From contig KZ539019.1 of NCBI GenBank assembly GCA_000934665.2, forward strand, positions 1-36,219: 36,219 nt of DNA. Direction: 5' to 3'. Position 1 is the first letter of the stretch, and every line of letters starts with the position of its first letter. Made by a program: the position numbers and the translations under genes. The DNA is from Catajapyx aquilonaris (taxonomy: Eukaryota). Shown here piece after piece: positions 8,991 through 34,876 of this stretch. The notes below the pieces were generated by a model, which saw nothing but the letters and a program-made list of their open reading frames with translations, searched no databases and was not told where the DNA came from.

Positions 8991-9305
8991 TTATTTATGG
9001 CCTGTCCCCTCATGACATTCATTAAGTCCCAATTTGTCCCTCAGAGTATTGTGGAGTGGCGTCACCTAACGAGCATGAGACTGGTGCTGAGGCAGCCTTC
9101 TGCCCTCTGGAACACCTTCAGACTGGATGACCTCAACCTCCTGGTTCCGACTGGACGTCCCCTGTCATCACGGACACCGACGCCGGCCCCTGAAACTATT
9201 CTGGACATGCTGAGGCGGCAGACCATGGCTGCCCTCAGGGTCTCTGTCGATAGGTCCAGTTCTTCAGAAGGGTCAGGTTCCGCCTATGAAATCACTTCCT
9301 TGTAA
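8991..9305 (+). CDS. Candidate distal terminal coding exon (possibly CaMKI) ending in a class I PDZ-binding motif
   Basis: GC-richer coding-like ORF. Two in-frame phase-0 acceptors: cttcacacag|8991 and tttgtccctcag|9045. Ends ...SAYEITSL-stop (T at -2, L at 0). Confidence 0.45.
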   Translation, partial: LFMACPLMTFIKSQFVPQSIVEWRHLTSMRLVLRQPSALWNTFRLDDLNLLVPTGRPLSSRTPTPAPETILDMLRRQTMAALRVSVDRSSSSEGSGSAYEITSL

Positions 9306-9975
9306 TTAGAGAGCCAGTTTGGTGGGAGAATTTTTTTCTTTTCTTCTGTTTTATATAACAACATAACATACCGGTACAATTAATGAACGATAACAGTAGC
9401 CCAAACTACTTTCTAATTGCCCAAACATAGATAATGAGTTACGTTGTCAACTTTCTCGTGATGTATCAAATTGTTGGTTCTTGTCACTGTGCGGTGTGTG
9501 TGCGGAGGAAGACATGGAATGTGAAGGCAATAGAGGTTTTTGTACTACAATGGAGGACAGTTACGTATACAATTGTGTTTCATAAATAAGTACTGTCGAT
9601 ATGTCGCGTTTGGCCGAAACTTTTCATGACATACCGGTACAGTATGGAATAACAACAGATGAGCAAGTCCACTTTTGGGCATATAGTGAGAGCACAGTAA
9701 TTGTTCCTGAGATGGAAAATGAGCTATATCAAACAATGAAACCAACAAGCACAAAGTAATGGTACGGTAATAAATAAAAGGCGCTCTATGTACACTGGAA
9801 GAATTAGTGACATCACACTGGCCAAGTCACTGGGGAATCTGGAATACATGGGCCCAGATTCTAATAGTCAAATGGGCCCATGGTTCCAACACACTGGCAG
9901 TGATCAAGAAAAAAGCCGTATCTGACGGAGGCAGCAGTTGCGGCTTTTTAGCTGATCAGCAGAGATCGCGAGACT

Positions 9976-10485
9976 TCACTTGGGTCTCTTCCTGGCGGCC
10001 CCCAGTTTGGCTTTGGCCCTGTTGGAGGGCACAGCGGCTGACCCGGGGCTGCCCCTTGAGGCGGAGGCTCCGAGGGCCTTCATCTTCTGCCGCTCCTCGA
10101 TCTTGTGTCGGAGGGTGAGCAGGGTGGCTGGGCTGGCCCCTGTGCCCGTTCGGACATGCTTGCCAGTCATGGCCCTTGGAGCTCGGCGGCGGTGCTGGAG
10201 GGCCGGCCCGGGGTCCAGCCCGGTGGCGGACAGGTCGGTGGCAGAGAAGTCGTCGGAGGTGGAGGGCTGCCGGTCGGAGGTCGGGGTCAGGAGTCGGGAG
10301 TGGTGCTCTGGGTGGGGGTGGTGCTGAGGATGGTGGTGACGGTGTGTTGGATGCGGCGAGATGCTCCCGTGTGGGGAGGGTAAGGAGGCGGTGGTCACAG
10401 CCGGGGCAGGGTCGGAGGTTAGGGATGGGGGCTCGCCCACCACCCCCTGGGACTGCGACGCTAGCTGCCGAAGAAGCTCCTGGGC
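9976..10485 (-). CDS. Exon 2 of an uncharacterised 403-aa nuclear protein (aa 235-403)
   Basis: Acceptor gaccttccag|GCC with upstream ctgac branch motifs, phase 0. GC-rich ORF with a His/Pro tract, the block RRRAPRAMTGKHVRTGTGASPATLLTLRHKIEERQKMK and a basic C-terminus ARKRPK. Stop TGA at 9976-9978. Confidence 0.85.
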   Translation of the reverse strand, partial: AQELLRQLASQSQGVVGEPPSLTSDPAPAVTTASLPSPHGSISPHPTHRHHHPQHHPHPEHHSRLLTPTSDRQPSTSDDFSATDLSATGLDPGPALQHRRRAPRAMTGKHVRTGTGASPATLLTLRHKIEERQKMKALGASASRGSPGSAAVPSNRAKAKLGAARKRPK

Positions 10486-10541
10486 CTGGAAGGTCAGCAG
10501 GTCAGTTTTTTGCAAATTACATCACACCCTGTACCGCTCAC
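10486..10541 (-). other. 56-nt spliceosomal intron (phase 0)
   Basis: CAG|gtgagc ... ctgac ... ttccag|GCC. Lower-GC island inside GC-rich coding sequence. Removing it fuses ORFs 10494..11243 and 9976..10515 in frame (...HSFQ|AQELL...). Confidence 0.9.
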
Positions 10542-11243
10542 CTGAAAACTGTGCAGCAGATGCGAATAGTACCCCAGGTATAGCCAGGGAGGTGCGTAGG
10601 GCACTGCCGATGCCAACTGGAGCTGCAGCAACTGTTGCTGCCTGTGGTAGATAGCCCCCAGGTCATCCTTGCCCTCGGGGTCATCATCCTCATCCTCATC
10701 CTCCTTCCGCCTATTGTTGTTATCCTCCTCTATATGACCCCTGTACTCCTCCTCCTGCTCCTGCTCCGGGTGCCTGTAGCTCGGATGCAGATGTGACCTC
10801 CTCTTCTTCAGGTTAAGGTCAAGGGGCTTGGACATATCAGGTGTGGCATCTCCAGACGGATTAGGAGCGCCGGCGCTTGTGACCCCTTTCTTAATATGTG
10901 TCACCATCTCCTCCAACCTCGCCCTTTTGTGCTGCATCATCCCTTCAGCCGCCCGACCATACCTGGCCCTAATCAACGACAACGGAATCAGCGCCCCGGG
11001 TCGGCCCCCATCTCCTTCAGACTCATCCTGGGATTCGGTCGGATGAGGCCGACTTAAATCAATCGGGCCGGATTCAGACACCCCAGGCCGATGTTCCTCC
11101 TCATCATCATCATCCTCATCATCTTCTTCCTCTTCCTCTTCGTCCTCTTCTTCCTCCTCAGCCACCTCCTCTTCCGGAGTCATCACGGCAACACCCGCGA
11201 CGCCCTCCTCAGCCGCCGCCTGCCTCAAGACCATTCCCACCAT
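10542..11243 (-). CDS. Exon 1 of an uncharacterised 403-aa nuclear protein with CtBP-type motifs (aa 1-234)
   Basis: ATG at 11243 follows an in-frame TGA (11262-11264). Contains two acidic tracts, PIDLS (aa 60), PLSLI (aa 87), KRARLEEMV (aa 106) and PLDLNLKKRR (aa 140). Confidence 0.85.
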
Positions 11244-11359
11244 CCATCCATCCGGAGATAATCAACAACTCTGATATCCTGTAACAATATAATAAAGCAT
11301 TGTTGACAATATTAAAATGTGCCGGCTGCTTATTCGCGAACAATCTGCAAACCCATCAG

Positions 11360-11586
11360 CCAATCCAGTCACCCCAACAGCACGTGCGCCTTCCCTCCTT
11401 AGATTAGCCCCGCCCAACCCCTCCCCTTTTTGCGTCTGGATCGTCCCCCCAGCATCCCTGGGAATGGACCAGGACACGCCCCTTTCCCCTAGTTGAGATC
11501 CGCCAATCTCCCAACGACTTCCGCTTCTTGTAATCCCCCAATGGCGATACATGTCATGCCGGCGGACTGGGGCAGTTGTGACGTCA
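11360..11586 (-). promoter_or_regulatory. Probable proximal promoter/enhancer of the minus-strand gene
   Basis: Motif cluster: CCAAT (11360, 11503), E-box CACGTG (11381), GC box CCCCGCCC (11408), ETS ACTTCCG (11517), TAATCC (11531), CRE TGACGTCA (11579). TSS not determinable; a possible 5'UTR acceptor ttacag| sits at 11279/11278. Confidence 0.5.
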
Positions 11587-12940
11587 CAGGTCGTTCATCT
11601 TGACCTCGTTTGTATTATTCAGAAGGTGACCAAAAAAATATGCAGAAAATATAATTGAAAATTTCTATGACCCAGGGTCATTATTGTTGTGGATAATATG
11701 TGGGTGGAAAAATATGTTGTTCCAGGATTCTTAATGGTTTTTCACCTGAAATGTCGGAAAAGGATTATCTGTTGGGATGACCTTGCTGTATGGGAAAAAC
11801 AACTTGGAAGGGTCAGTGCCTGGGCTTAACTTCGTGGGACTCTGACCAACTTGCATTTGGATATATGCTACAAACTGTTTTCGGTTGCGTTCATATAGTG
11901 ACCGATCTATAGCTCAGCGCATCAGGAAATTTATAACTGTTTTTTTGTCACATTACGTAACGTCGTAACGTAAACGGTAAATATGTATACAGGACTTACA
12001 ACGCATTTTTCTCGCTTTTTCCTCCTGGCTAATTTATATAATCGACTATACATTTCCAGGTGTCACTTAAGGCTATAGCTTACACATTTTATAGCCCTAG
12101 GAGTGACTGCCTCTAAATTATTGCGCGGTTATGCTAGATCGCCTATACCTTTTTAGTGTCACGTTACTTAATTAGTGACAGTCTTTAGGCCTACACTAAA
12201 AATTCAATATGCTGAGTTATGCGCTTAATTTTTTTAGTGTACAGGTATACAAAACCTATTTGTGAATATTGTGAGTGACCTACCTAAGTGGCTGCCATGA
12301 CCTCTGAATATGTCCAGGGAGAGAGAGAGAGCACGTGTGAGAGGCCGTTGCGAGCACAACTGAAGGAATGGAAATAAAAGTGGTCTGGGGCCGGAAGGAA
12401 GGAGGCGATGACCCGGAGCTTCTGAGGGTCCAAAAACAAGGGGGGGCCGCCCCTGTATTGCACTTGTTTACCTACCCTTTCTACCCCCTACTTCGTTCAA
12501 ATGGTCACTTGACCCTGCACTGCCAAGAATGTTTTTTTCGAGAGAGGACGGTCCTTAGTCCTTGACCATTCTCATATTCTGAACAACAAGTGGGGGGGCT
12601 TAAAACCCATTTTAGAGTTAGGTCGACCTCCCCCTATGATGGAAGGAGGCATAAATGGTTAGGCCTTTTTCCTAAATTGGGGCGCCTGACCTTCGAGGGA
12701 GAACTGGTGAATTCGTGTCGAGGCGGAGGTCATCAGCATTCTTGTCTTTTGTGTCACGTTCTAGGGTGGATCGAAGCGATTTGTGGGGGGGGGGGGNGCG
12801 ATTTGTGGGGGGGGGGGGCCTCAACAAACGGCCCGTTTATTGCATTCAGGTCAATGAGGTATTGAAAGGGGTTCATTCAGTTCTTGGTAGGAACATATTG
12901 CCCAATCAGATGGCAGGATTCAACAATAAATCGCATGGTA

Positions 12941-13166
12941 CTGCTTGCGACATTTTCTGTTGCGGCAGAAGTGCAAATCGAAATGATCGAGTGTGAGCCG
13001 TGCGAGTAAGAAGAGGTAGCCCTTGAGTGACGTCATCGGCTGGGGGGAAATAGAGAAAAAGGCTTGTTCCCAGCCAGTGACGTCACCCAAGGGCTACCAT
13101 TTCTTACTCGCACGGCTCGAACTCTTCGATTTGCACGTCTGCCGCACCGGGAAATGTCGCTAGCAG
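12941..13166. repeat. Long imperfect palindrome (fold-back/MITE-like), ~100-bp arms and ~24-nt loop
   Basis: 12941-13044 is the reverse complement of 13069-13166 with scattered mismatches and one small indel. Each arm contains TGACGTCA. No clear TSD. Confidence 0.85.

Positions 13167-13278: not shown

Positions 13279-13365
<87 letters not shown>
13279..13365. repeat. (AT)n microsatellite, ~43 units
   Basis: Uninterrupted AT dinucleotide run of 87 nt. Confidence 0.99.
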
Positions 13366-18367: not shown

Positions 18368-18499
18368 NNNNNNNNNNNNNNNNNNNNNNNNNNNNNNNNN
18401 NNNNNNNNNNNNNNNNNNNNNNNNNNNNNNNNNNNNNNNNNNNNNNNNNNNNNNNNNNNNNNNNNNNNNNNNNNNNNNNNNNNNNNNNNNNNNNNNNNN
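18368..18499. other. Assembly gap (N run) between a G run and a C run
   Basis: 132 N. Confidence 0.99.
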
Positions 18500-22274: not shown

Positions 22275-23768
22275 CAATATACACATGCTCGTAAAGTGTA
22301 TGGTAAACTATTCAGGAATGGGCAAAAACATTGCACAATGAATAAATAAATAAAATAAAACCCTCTCATTTGAAGACATTGCGCGCCATGTTAATGTAGG
22401 TCACTGAACGAGGTCACCTCCGGACCGTCTCGCATATTACGTCACTCCATGATATTTACGATCCCATCAGCCCCCAGTTGCCCTCACCGTCCACCTTCCG
22501 TCTGCCCCAAGAAGTACCATCCTCCACTCAAACCCGTCTGAGTCCGCCACCAAAAGGTCACCCCCCAGTCAGCCTTCCACCAAACCAACAGATGGCGCAG
22601 GTGTCCCCACACCTCACGCCTTCTTGCCCATTTTTTTTATATTAAATCCGGAAGCTGACGTCAGACCCTTATTCGAGCCAATGAGCCTGAAAAGCCAGGT
22701 AGGATCGATCTATTCATGATACGGATCTAGCCTAGAATGAGTCAAAAGGAGGGGGGGGGGGGGTCATGACGTCAATTGGATCGACATCATGCGAAATCAG
22801 GTGCAAAATAGCCACGATTTATAGACCTTAAATTTAAATCTGGATCATATAACCATGCCATGCAATATATAAAATGCAAAGTAGGTTTGTTTGTCCACTA
22901 TTTCGTACCAATTTGCTGCTGTTTTTTTTTTTGTAATGAGAAAAAAAAGGTGGTTGCGAACAAAATTGTCTTTTTGGCAGAACAAGAAGGCGGGAATCAG
23001 CAAGGCGTGGAAAACAAGGAGAGGGTAAAATGGAGGTTGAGCGCCTGAAAAGAAGTCTTCGCATGACTATCTGAGAGAATCTTGTGGTCGCAGCCCAACG
23101 ACCTGAGGCCCCACTTTGGACTACCTCCTACTTCCTCTCTTTCTCTACAAAATGCTTCTTTTTTTATTGTAGTTCTGATGTTATTTCGGCCACCTACCTA
23201 CCCCTGGTGTTCCTTACCTTTCTTCTGTGGACTGGAAATTCATGCGGTGAATCTGGCACGTAAATCACTTATGAAGGATAGATAAGCTAGGATTAAAGGC
23301 ATTGCAGGTAGTTGGAGCCTAATAGAGCTTGATGGATATTGGGCAGATGATCTATTAGGGTAATTATATGGCTGGTTCGACCCCCATGCAAATGCTATAT
23401 ATTTATATTATTAAAAGTCGAATGTCATGGAAAGTCCTCCCGCACCGTTTGGGAGTGGTCTCTGAATTTTCGTCGCGTTTTCAACATGTGCAGTAAACCC
23501 CCCCCCCTTTTTTTGTTGAAAAAGTGGCCAGAGACTTTGTGAAACGAAAAAAAACGCCGATTCCACGGAATTCCCATTTCCGCCGTTGGGCACCACCTGG
23601 GTGGCGACTCGCTTATATTTCTGCACGTCGCCGTCGGATGTCGCTTCGATAATGCTGCGGGTCTCTCTCTTTCTATCCACTTTCGCCTAATTTTGTGCCA
23701 AATGTTGGCAAGTCGGTGCCTAGTTAATATATTGTTTTGTAACTAGTTTATTAATAATTCCGATAGTA

Positions 23769-24352: not shown

Positions 24353-24474
24353 NNNNNNNNNNNNNNNNNNNNNNNNNNNNNNNNNNNNNNNNNNNNNNNN
24401 NNNNNNNNNNNNNNNNNNNNNNNNNNNNNNNNNNNNNNNNNNNNNNNNNNNNNNNNNNNNNNNNNNNNNNNNNN
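24353..24474. other. Assembly gap (N run) after a G run
   Basis: 122 N. Confidence 0.99.
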
Positions 24475-34794: not shown

Positions 34795-34876
34795 CTACTC
34801 TCCCGAATGGCACTGGTAGAATTCACGGGGGATTGTTGTGATCCCGTGATTCTCGAGTGCTATCCAGGAGGGGTTG
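34795..34876 (+). ncRNA. mir-263a: pre-miRNA miR-263a (miR-183 orthologue, MIR-96/183 family); mature 5p ~34806-34829
   Basis: 5p arm AATGGCACTGGTAGAATTCACGGG is 1 nt from insect miR-263a AAUGGCACUGGAAGAAUUCACGGG and shares GGUAG with vertebrate miR-183. It pairs with CCCGTGATTCTCGAGTGCTAT, with basal stem CTCTCC/GGAGGG. Confidence 0.95.

Follow-up and report, generated by a model that had tools for sequence, protein, structure and literature searches.

A two-exon gene of Catajapyx aquilonaris encoding a predicted mostly disordered protein with a CtBP-type docking motif: a possible nuclear co-regulator

Background

The 36,219-nt stretch of Catajapyx aquilonaris DNA analysed here (GenBank assembly GCA_000934665.2, contig KZ539019.1, positions 1 to 36,219 of the forward strand), referred to as the window, contains two ORFs that can be spliced into a reading frame for a protein of 403 amino acids (AA). 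This locus raises the question of whether a protein resembling no known family is encoded by a real gene and, if so, whether it could recruit a corepressor through short linear motifs (SLiMs) alone. A first-pass annotation made from the sequence had proposed a candidate corepressor adaptor similar to Hairless or Ripply, which would bring CtBP to a DNA-bound factor.

Gene structure and transcription

The gene model on the minus strand comprises the following features.

11243..10542, minus strand: coding exon 1, residues 1-234 (product P0001), 702 nt, 234 codons; X5 contigs over 10541-10671, 10725-11086 and 11172-11280
10541..10486, minus strand: intron, 56 nt, GT..AG, phase 0; read from the sequence and skipped exactly by an X5 contig
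10485..9976, minus strand: coding exon 2, residues 235-403 and TGA stop (product P0002), 169 codons; X5 contigs over 10184-10484 and 9322-10084
11244..11280, minus strand: putative 5' UTR, about 37 nt; an X5 contig reaches 11280
9322..9975, minus strand: 3' UTR, about 650 nt; unbroken X5 contig 9322-10084, contig-based end

After removal of the 56-nt intron, both exons form a single ORF of 403 AA. The intron has the donor CAG/GTGAGC, the acceptor TTCCAG/G and two CTGAC branch-like sites; if it were retained, translation would stop inside it and yield a form of 249 AA. A 432-nt contig of the run X5 joins 10484 to 10541 and skips the 56 nt, the ends of which read CT..AC on the plus strand, and the joint was found in none of the contigs of the DNA run X1. 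X5 is a second run from the same organism, the kind of which is not on record (it is not recorded as RNA). Within the 3.5 kb examined, X5 contigs occur only at 9322..11280, apart from a 34-nt repeat, and their span outlines a transcript of about 1.9 kb. The start of transcription is one that we infer, since contigs cannot show the end of an RNA. Two out-of-frame ATGs, at 11251 and 11247, lie in the putative 5' UTR.

The depth of X1 is even at 32 over most of the gene and 14-27 over a masked acidic-repeat stretch at 11087-11171, and this even depth indicates a single copy. The depth of X5 is low across the coding part (1-4.6). In composition-preserving local shuffles of the spliced transcript (three block sizes, 3000 shuffles each), no ATG-ORF reached 403 codons, the longest measuring 321, 353 and 259 codons; the 403-codon ORF is not due to chance. 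The GC content of exon 1 is codon-periodic (0.69/0.38/0.64 by codon position). Exon 2 is GC-rich, and another minus-strand frame is open there for 181 codons. The locus is a real, transcribed, single-copy two-exon gene. The strand, the coordinates and the joining of two ORFs over a 56-nt intron had been given correctly in the first-pass annotation, with the splice now seen independently in the X5 contig, and all peptides quoted there are present in the translations of P0001 and P0002.

Search for homologous proteins

Both exon products were compared with Pfam without any match above threshold, the best being DUF3245 with an E-value of 0.046 and 14.7 bits against a cutoff of 26.4. Other sub-threshold likeness was restricted to acidic-tract families, namely Prothymosin (E 0.15) and DNA_pol_phi (E 0.93). 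With no Pfam domain at all in either exon product, the earlier observation that a recognisable DNA-binding domain is absent was confirmed. Across the window, none of the 148 ORFs with 65 AA or more between stops matched a Pfam family at E <= 0.001; therefore, the neighbouring genes could not be named, which leaves no basis for an argument from synteny.

A word-index search with exon 1 against proteins of 411-2000 AA and 128-410 AA gave no relative among the candidates listed, which were limited to about 8000 and probably crowded by acidic words; the set of 411-2000 AA leaves out any relative of 403 AA. The same search with residues 90-169 of exon 2 against proteins of 411-2000 AA was blank. 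An exhaustive HMMER search with residues 50-234 against a library of 1.84 billion proteins returned a single match and not even the protein itself. This phmmer match (E 6.6e-4) was to a 660-AA tandem-repeat protein in seven stretches and was judged to be spurious. In the ESM Atlas, the best scores for exon 1 were 0.85 (a Znf238.2 fragment cluster) and 0.79 (E1A), both below the lead level of 0.9, and exon 2 had no usable match. The ESM recognition values of the two exon products were 1511 and 1099, compared to 2300 for most known families. A phmmer search of the PDB at E <= 10 gave chance rows only (IF-2, Dlp-1, WASP acidic tails and antibody light chains). A metagenome scan and a viral scan yielded 589 and 594 pattern matches, none of which was confirmed by tblastn. 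The protein had been called unrecognised, and it stayed so in the Pfam, word-index, HMMER, PDB, ESM Atlas, metagenome and viral searches.

This lack of any homolog, extending to the missing self-match in the library of 1.84 billion proteins, could mean that the transcript is young, lineage-restricted or of de novo origin, with a GC-rich, repeat-rich ORF that is open by chance and has little or no selected function. Such an origin would agree with the low ESM recognition values, the low X5 depth over the coding part, the second frame open for 181 codons in exon 2 and the large share of low-complexity sequence, which is in part encoded by triplet repeats. However, blank searches weigh little here, since the libraries may cover this animal lineage poorly, and the ORF exceeds all 3000 local shuffles at each block size. 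The spliced intron keeps the frame exactly, the codon periodicity of GC in exon 1 is strong, the promoter and the 3' UTR are well formed, and amphipathic helices are confidently predicted by AlphaFold2. A transcript with little or no selected function is considered unlikely.

Protein composition and predicted structure

The following segments of the protein were distinguished.

11094..11174, minus strand: acidic run, residues 24-50, nearly all Glu/Asp (27 residues); encoded by a GAN-type triplet repeat (family D1)
10893..10928, minus strand: KRARLEEMVTHI, residues 106-117, core of the most confident helix of exon 1 in the AlphaFold2 model
10462..10589, minus strand: predicted aromatic/hydrophobic helix PWLYLGYYSHLLHSFQ/AQELLRQL, residues 219-242, spanning the intron; halves modelled exon by exon
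10300..10353, minus strand: His/Pro-rich run HPTHRHHHPQHHPHPEHH, residues 279-296 (18 residues), read from the translation
10072..10134, minus strand: predicted C-terminal helix SPATLLTLRHKIEERQKMKAL, residues 352-372 (helix 119-139 of P0002, mean pLDDT of 89 in block 121-130)
9979..9993, minus strand: basic C-terminal tail RKRPK, residues 399-403, NLS-like; read from the translation, with a putative role in nuclear import

The protein contains 70 Asp and Glu, 47 Lys and Arg, 25 His, 37 Pro, no Cys, one Trp and two Phe residues. Its net charge is -23, and a second acidic block exists besides the Glu/Asp run. Much of the sequence is of low complexity, which stems partly from triplet repeats. 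The AlphaFold2 models, computed per exon, have a mean pLDDT of 60.8 for exon 1 and 60.1 for exon 2, and helices are predicted only at residues 88-123, 160-182, 193-212 and 219-232 of exon 1 and at residues 2-10 and 119-139 of exon 2. The helix at 88-123 reaches a mean pLDDT of 82 in block 101-110 and 78 in block 111-120. The helix across the intron is composed of residues 219-232 of P0001 and residues 2-10 of P0002, each exon being modelled separately, and residues 219-242 together with the helix at 193-212 form the only hydrophobic cluster of the protein. According to these models, the protein is mostly disordered with few helices; composition and models bear out its initial description as mostly low complexity. 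It is probably nuclear.

A nuclear protein of this composition might also act through its blocks of charge and without CtBP, binding chromatin or histones as an acidic protein, serving as a chaperone-like protein or speckle component, or functioning as an acidic activator, with any CtBP-like motifs being incidental. The 27-residue Glu/Asp run, the second acidic block, the net charge, the 25 His residues and the basic tails are consistent with this, as is the sub-threshold Pfam likeness to the acidic-tract families Prothymosin and DNA_pol_phi only. Long acidic runs and basic tails suit such other nuclear roles equally well.

CtBP-type motifs

Three segments had been named as CtBP-type motifs.

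11052..11066, minus strand: PIDLS, residues 60-64, canonical PxDLS CtBP-docking motif followed by Arg; read from the translation, non-helical, low pLDDT
10971..10985, minus strand: PLSLI, residues 87-91, PxDLS-like near-miss; read from the translation, at the start of the predicted helix 88-123
10797..10826, minus strand: PLDLN followed directly by LKKRR, residues 140-149 (140-144 and 145-149); read from the translation, non-helical segment

The motifs were compared with a pattern that we take to be ELM LIG_CtBP_PxDLS_1. PIDLS and PPSLT (253-257) fit this presumed ELM-style pattern, giving two matches compared to 0.18 expected (P = 0.015), and PLSLI and PLDLN miss it at the last position. Of the three proposed motifs, PIDLS is therefore canonical, whereas the other two are near-misses. 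In the shuffled protein, the strict PxDLS motif is expected 0.017 times and occurs once. The broader pattern P[ILVM][DNS]L. occurs three times compared to 0.082 expected (P = 5e-5, 20000 shuffles), a pattern that was set after the motifs had been seen.

PIDLS lies in a segment with block pLDDT values of 50-53 and without secondary structure predicted by AlphaFold2, so that its PxDLS core is placed in a disordered, accessible stretch. Both PIDLS and PLDLN lie outside the predicted helices, with basic residues after them. Since PLSLI caps the predicted long helix at its N-terminus, it is less likely to dock as an extended peptide. The LKKRR patch is a candidate nuclear localisation signal or, alternatively, a PLKKR-like motif. 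On reading the 403-AA translation, no LxxLL, eh1 or WRPW motif was seen. The segment RAAEGMM (97-103) was also considered as a Sin3 SID, but its hydrophobic positions, compared by eye, do not fit what we take to be the Mad1 SID pattern.

According to 10.1101/2025.06.30.662346, the peptide crystallised with CtBP1 in structure 1HL3 is PIDLS, and papers on E2F7 (PMC4063256) and FOG (PMC2193678) are listed as containing the same motif. For PLDLN, which ends in N, no precedent was found in the literature searched, and PLSLI appeared there only in papers titled on Li-metal batteries and beta-strand statistics. In Drosophila repressive domains, according to PMC9890238, PxDLS recruits CtBP, PLKKR pulls down subunits of the Smrter complex, and both occur together in the repressive domains of Snail, Escargot and Worniu. 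The legend of Figure EV5 in that study gives 136 PxDLS-bearing tiles inside repressive domains compared to 1303 outside. The presence of such a motif is a weak predictor.

This predominance of tiles outside repressive domains also favours an action through charge blocks. However, such an action does not account for three P-hydrophobic-[D/S]-L motifs where 0.08 are expected (a pattern chosen post hoc), for two of them lying in disordered segments with basic residues after them, or for the exact match of PIDLS to a crystallised CtBP ligand (10.1101/2025.06.30.662346). Incidental motifs in a charge-driven nuclear protein are considered somewhat unlikely.

Comparison with known co-regulators

A close analogy is offered by RAI2, which according to PMC11187106 is mostly disordered, has no folded domain and acts on CtBP via repeated SLiMs alone. 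The 403-AA protein is likewise predicted to be mostly disordered, has no recognisable folded or DNA-binding domain and contains at least two SLiMs of the PxDLS type. In RAI2, the non-canonical motif ALDLS is present in two identical copies, and their spacing of 21 residues drives the formation of CtBP filaments (PMC11187106). In contrast, the protein described here has no ALDLS, and its PIDLS is separated from PLDLN by 75 residues that include a predicted helix. Moreover, RAI2 is described in the same source as inactivating CtBP rather than recruiting it to DNA (PMC11187106). Sequence similarity to RAI2 was found in none of the searches.

The combination of PxDLS and PLKKR in Snail, Escargot and Worniu has a counterpart in PLDLN adjoining a Leu-Lys-Lys-Arg patch at residues 140-149, and PLKKR in flies is reported in PMC9890238 to pull down Smrter, Ebi and HDAC3. 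However, those three proteins are zinc-finger DNA binders, whereas no domain is recognisable here. The basic patch also differs, being N-LKKRR compared to P-LKKR-P, and no homology was found.

Hairless, the arthropod adaptor of Su(H), and Ripply, the adaptor between Groucho and Tbx proteins, use SLiMs to link a corepressor with a factor bound to DNA. Hairless is marked by an N-terminal box that binds Su(H), by an eh1-like motif for Groucho and by PLNLS at its C-terminus, and Ripply by a WRPW motif that binds Groucho and a Ripply homology (FPVQ) domain. The 403-AA protein may share with them the concept of an adaptor that is small or disordered and lacks a DNA-binding domain. Kinship with Ripply, however, was not borne out: the sole Trp is located in PWLY rather than in a WRPW motif, and no Ripply family is among the Pfam matches at E <= 1. 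Kinship with Hairless was judged by the searches, none of which found a Hairless relative, and by PLNLS, which is absent from the translation. Since kinship has no support, the earlier Hairless/Ripply-like label stands only as an analogy of mechanism.

Adenovirus E1A has acidic stretches and a PLDLS-type motif near a basic NLS close to its C-terminus. The 403-AA protein resembles it in its acidic stretches, PxDL-type motif and basic NLS-like patch, and in the ESM cluster score of 0.79, which is below the lead level. It differs in lacking Cys altogether, and with it the Cys-rich CR3, and in having neither an Adeno_E1A Pfam match nor a hit in the viral contig scan. Its gene is cellular, with an intron and a promoter of its own.

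The protein could nevertheless belong to a known family and have diverged beyond the reach of sequence searches, for example as a protein like the N-terminal part of Prospero/Prox or as an orthologue of Hairless, of RAI2, of LCoR or of an E1A-like viral gene. Besides the E1A cluster in the ESM feature search, KRARLEEMVTHI presumably resembles a motif of Prox1. Prospero binds CtBP through ALSLV (10.1101/2025.06.30.662346). Against this, no homeo-prospero domain exists in the protein or in the 148 ORFs of the window, none of which has a Pfam match, and residues 50-234, among them KRARLEEMVTHI, gave the spurious repeat protein and no Prox-like match in the exhaustive HMMER search; kinship with Prospero/Prox1 is not supported. 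KRARVEN, KRARLEE and RAKRARV were not encountered in the literature searched. Pfam matches at E <= 1 are acidic-tract noise, the PDB, viral and metagenome scans are blank, and ESM scores below 0.9 are leads only. Divergent membership of a known family is very unlikely.

Proposed function

Our leading, still tentative explanation is a lineage-restricted, SLiM-based nuclear co-regulator with CtBP as the first candidate partner. CtBP would receive PIDLS (60-64), and perhaps also PLDLN (140-144), in its PxDLS cleft, and import into the nucleus would be directed by LKKRR and the terminal RKRPK. Alternatively, LKKRR may provide a PLKKR-like contact to the Smrter/NCoR complex. The helices at 88-123, at 193-242 across the exon junction and at 352-372 could hold a partner protein or mediate self-association. 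A role of the gene in repression is plausible because of the one textbook CtBP motif; the docking and any repression are what we infer from the primary structure.

If the motif reading is true, the gene encodes an invertebrate co-regulator without a recognisable domain that acts on CtBP, and perhaps on NCoR/Smrter, purely via short linear motifs. To our knowledge, few such domain-free co-regulators are known (RAI2, Hairless). Co-regulators of this kind escape homology-based annotation, and with about 1.9 kb and one tiny intron, this gene would be a compact test case for the origin and turnover of SLiM adaptors. Should the motif reading be wrong, the gene would join the many fast-evolving orphans that encode disordered proteins and would be of limited interest.

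Flanking regions and possible regulation

A further feature was found upstream of the gene.

11281..11600, minus strand: promoter-like block; sites read from the sequence, putative function

The block contains a CRE octamer TGACGTCA at 11579-11586, a GC box CCCCGCCC at 11408-11415, an E-box CACGTG at 11381-11386, a CCAAT at 11360-11364 and AT-rich, TATA-like stretches at 11286-11316. No X5 depth was recorded in the bins between 11340 and 11807. A mir-263/183 pair neighbours the gene. In the 3' UTR, an AU-rich-element nonamer TTATTTATT is located at about 9769-9777, and TATAAA occurs at 9350-9355, 28 nt before the end of the X5 contig.

A more specific form of the SLiM-based co-regulator can be drawn from these sites, which we regard as a long shot. 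The protein would be an inducible and short-lived nuclear SLiM hub, lineage-restricted, domain-free and of an evolutionary origin separate from vertebrate RAI2, with several CtBP motifs (PIDLS, PLDLN and perhaps PLSLI) and a PLKKR-like Smrter contact. Such a hub might bridge two corepressor complexes to a partner that the aromatic helical hairpin holds; alternatively, it might titrate CtBP or polymerise it when required. It is pictured as inducible and short-lived because of the CRE, E-box and CCAAT sites in the promoter and the AU-rich element in the 3' UTR; the CRE, the E-box and the AU-rich element also suggest that the gene might be of the immediate-early or clock type. The octamer TGACGTCA is over-represented in the window as a whole, with seven copies compared to 0.37 expected, partly inside repeats.

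Gene structure and transcription

Two open frames on the minus strand of the window sequence, between 11243 and 9976, form a gene of 403 codons when joined across a short intron.

Gene model
11243..10542, minus: exon 1, 702 nt, 234 codons, phase 0, encoding the exon 1 product P0001
10541..10486, minus: intron, 56 nt, donor CAG/GTGAGC, acceptor TTCCAG/G
10485..9976, minus: exon 2, 169 codons and TGA, encoding the exon 2 product P0002
9975..9322, minus: 3' UTR with an AU-rich nonamer, TTATTTATT, and TATAAA

The intron has a strong donor, two CTGAC branch-like sites and an acceptor rich in pyrimidines, and the gene lies in a GC-rich island (0.62 GC in 10001-11000 vs 0.33-0.50 elsewhere). Public runs of the same organism were compared over 9000-12500. 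X1-X4 are DNA runs, all four from a single sample from which the assembly may have been built, and X5 is a fifth, smaller run from another sample and study, of unrecorded kind, in which 0.68 of the sampled words were present. The 56-nt intron proposed in the first-pass annotation was confirmed by a 432-nt X5 contig that joins 10484 to 10541 and skips exactly these 56 bases, its joint reading CT..AC on the plus strand, i.e. GT..AG on the minus strand. Among the X1 contigs, none carries this skip. All peptides quoted in that annotation were found in the translation and assigned coordinates. If the intron were retained, the frame would stay open for 15 more codons to a stop (10494-10541, minus), giving a 249-aa form with all three PxDL-type motifs and without the His-rich region and the C-terminal helix.

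X5 contigs are confined to 9322-11280, save for a 34-nt repeat at 11881-11914, whereas X1 covers the whole stretch. Its depth stays even, near 32, falling to 14-27 where the acidic repeat is masked (11087-11171) and peaking at 11881-11914. The even depth indicates a single-copy gene. From the exact splice joint and the restricted coverage compared with X1, we infer that X5, although its kind is unrecorded, behaves like RNA and 9322..11280 like a spliced transcript of about 1.9 kb, whose ends contigs cannot show. The repeat at 11881-11914 is a high-copy one (DNA-run depth 461 vs about 32 nearby), in which many contigs end with differing continuations.

Coding is favoured by several measures. 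When the spliced transcript was shuffled with local composition kept, the longest ATG-ORF reached 403 codons in 0 of 3000 shuffles for each of three block sizes (maxima 321, 353 and 259 codons). The GC content of exon 1 per codon position is 0.69/0.38/0.64, and its two alternative frames, over the full coding sequence, hold 16 and 26 stops. A transcript of recent origin with an ORF of little selected function would agree with the lack of relatives described below; set beside these coding measures, it is considered improbable.

Upstream sites, coding strand
11579-11586, minus: palindromic CRE, TGACGTCA
11408-11415, minus: GC box
11381-11386, minus: E-box CACGTG
11360-11364, minus: CCAAT
11286-11316, minus: AT-rich TATA-like stretches

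The X5 contig stops at 11280, downstream of all five sites on the coding strand, and TATAAA is positioned 28 nt before the contig end in the 3' UTR. Functions of these putative promoter sites and 3' UTR motifs are suggested by their sequence; taken with the AU-rich element, the promoter sites hint, as a lead only, at an inducible, unstable message. Two out-of-frame ATGs (11251 and 11247, minus), 8 and 4 nt 5' of the first ATG of the ORF, open short overlapping uORFs. At codon 4, a further in-frame ATG (11234) is flanked by a purine at -3 and G at +4. Its context is better than that of the first, so translation may really begin there.

Search for relatives

Pfam searches with the exon products returned acidic-tract noise only, and word-index protein searches with exon 1 (two) and the C-terminal 80 residues (one) gave no matches. 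An exhaustive phmmer search of residues 50-234 against 1.84 billion representatives gave one match (E 6.6e-4), to a tandem-repeat protein aligned in seven stretches, which was regarded as spurious. This search returned no self-match either, so the protein is absent from the collection. How well the collection covers this animal lineage is not established, so the blank argues only weakly for a true orphan. No relatives came from PDB sequence searches, ESM Atlas feature searches, or metagenome and viral contig scans. The description of the protein as unrecognised thus holds across all these searches, and extends to its sequence family. A known family might still include it as a very diverged member that such searches miss; with no relative in any of the collections searched, this is regarded as the least probable explanation. 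The gene is real and escapes annotation by homology.

Protein layout and candidate CtBP docking

The protein contains E 43, A 39, P 37, L 34, S 34, R 31, G 30, D 27 and H 25, with no Cys, one Trp and two Phe, and has a net charge of -23. The exon products were modelled separately with AlphaFold2, without alignment. The exon 1 model (mean pLDDT 60.8, pTM 0.20) has predicted helices at 88-123, 160-182, 193-212 and 219-232, the first containing KRARLEEMVTHI with blocks 101-120 at pLDDT 78-82. The exon 2 model (mean pLDDT 60.1, pTM 0.18) has helices at 2-10 and 119-139 in exon 2 numbering, with block 121-130 at pLDDT 89.

Predicted layout of the protein, N- to C-terminus
1: acidic N-terminus, predicted disordered
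2: PIDLS, after the acidic N-terminus
3: long basic-amphipathic helix, predicted, beginning at PLSLI
4: PLDLN-LKKRR segment, predicted disordered
5: second acidic helix, predicted
6: aromatic helix-turn-helix-like cluster (193-212, PYAPP, 219-about 244) crossing the splice junction, exons modelled separately
7: His/Pro-rich stretch, predicted disordered
8: single confident C-terminal helix, predicted, 352-372
9: basic tail, terminal RKRPK

The first-pass annotation counted three CtBP-type motifs. By its sequence PIDLS is a canonical CtBP ligand motif, while PLSLI and PLDLN are near-misses. According to 10.1101/2025.06.30.662346, the CtBP1 crystal structure 1HL3 contains PIDLS as its peptide, and the motif also turns up in papers on E2F7 and FOG. 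In the AlphaFold2 models, PIDLS and PLDLN lie in segments without secondary structure, followed by Arg and by L-K-K-R-R, respectively. A literature search found no precedent for Asn at the last motif position of PLDLN. An extended docking conformation is less likely for PLSLI, because it caps a predicted helix. The loose pattern P[ILVM][DNS]L., which was tailored to these three matches, occurs 3 times in the protein vs 0.082 expected from 20000 shuffles (P = 5e-5). An ELM-style pattern matched twice (PIDLS, and PPSLT at 253-257) vs 0.18 expected (P = 0.015), and strict PxDLS once vs 0.017 expected in shuffles.

A Drosophila proteome-wide screen (PMC9890238) reports 136 PxDLS-bearing tiles in repressive domains vs 1303 outside (Figure EV5), a sobering base rate for motif presence. 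Its other results back the reasoning from motifs: it reports that domains with PxDLS are CtBP-dependent and bring CtBP down, that Smrter, Ebi and HDAC3 are pulled down by a second, basic motif, PLKKR (as in Snail YxxCPLKKRP and MeCP2 PIKKR), and that both motifs occur together in Snail, Escargot and Worniu domains. PLDLN-LKKRR resembles this pairing in arrangement but reads N-LKKRR instead of P-LKKR-P, and LKKRR could equally be a PLKKR-like contact or a plain nuclear localisation signal.

The preferred reading, which is tentative, is a nuclear disordered co-regulator that would dock CtBP through PIDLS and perhaps also PLDLN. The basic patch may contact a second corepressor, and the helices would hold a partner protein or self-associate. 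The protein could serve either as an adaptor that attaches to a DNA-bound factor, the role put forward in the first-pass annotation, or as an RAI2-like modulator. PMC11187106 describes RAI2 as binding several CtBP tetramers at once and inactivating them; its linker has 21 residues, whereas PIDLS and PLDLN are spaced by 75 residues with a helix between. The protein did not show the features tested for membership of Ripply, Prospero/Prox1, RAI2 or E1A. For Hairless, the comparison covered the searches, which returned no relative, and the translation, in which PLNLS does not occur. Of the CtBP-ligand class it has a canonical core in a disordered stretch, the sole class feature found, and by mechanism it would group with known SLiM-bearing corepressor partners. 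What supports the functional claim is a single canonical motif of 5 residues, together with the two near-misses. An acidic nuclear protein with incidental CtBP-like motifs would suit the Drosophila base rate, with the shuffle expectation for the loose pattern on the other side, and is judged a less likely but serious alternative.

Other features of the window

The octamer TGACGTCA occurs 7 times vs 0.37 expected (0 of 100 shuffles reach 7), at 11579, 13028, 13078, 19415, 22656, 22767 and 29121. Two copies lie inside a foldback, one in each arm, and the overrepresentation is thus partly repeat-borne.

12941-13166: foldback, ~226 nt, nested inverted arms, 84% complementary over 51 nt and 88% over 56 nt
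13279-13365: perfect (TA)n microsatellite, after the foldback

By its structure the foldback looks MITE-like, and the pair at 22656/22767 may be a second copy of such an element. The coding sequence has a CpG observed/expected of 0.58, between 0.46 on the left side of the gene and 0.77 on its right, a moderate depletion. N runs, 256 N in all, at 12797, 18368-18499, 24353-24474 and 25049 indicate a scaffolded draft assembly.

No Pfam family matched any of the 148 window ORFs of 65 aa or more; the gene is therefore the only unit in 36 kb recognisable as protein-coding, and synteny is of no help. A 102-aa ATG-ORF on the opposite strand (8997-9305, plus) stops 17 nt short of where the X5-outlined transcript has its 3' end; it has no Pfam match, X5 depth is 0 over 9000-9233, and it is probably not a gene.

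Two hairpins exceed the Rfam gathering score:
34796-34874, plus: mir-263 family (mir-183 clan), 56.6 bits
35396-35475, plus: mir-263 family (mir-183 clan), 51.8 bits

The name mir-263 denotes invertebrate members of the mir-183 clan, and the window is therefore taken to come from a bilaterian invertebrate. The hairpins, with 5' arms AATGGCACTGGTAGAATTCACGG and CTTGGCACTGGAAGAATTCACAG, lie 600 nt apart and about 24 kb from the gene, and are probably a clustered miRNA pair.
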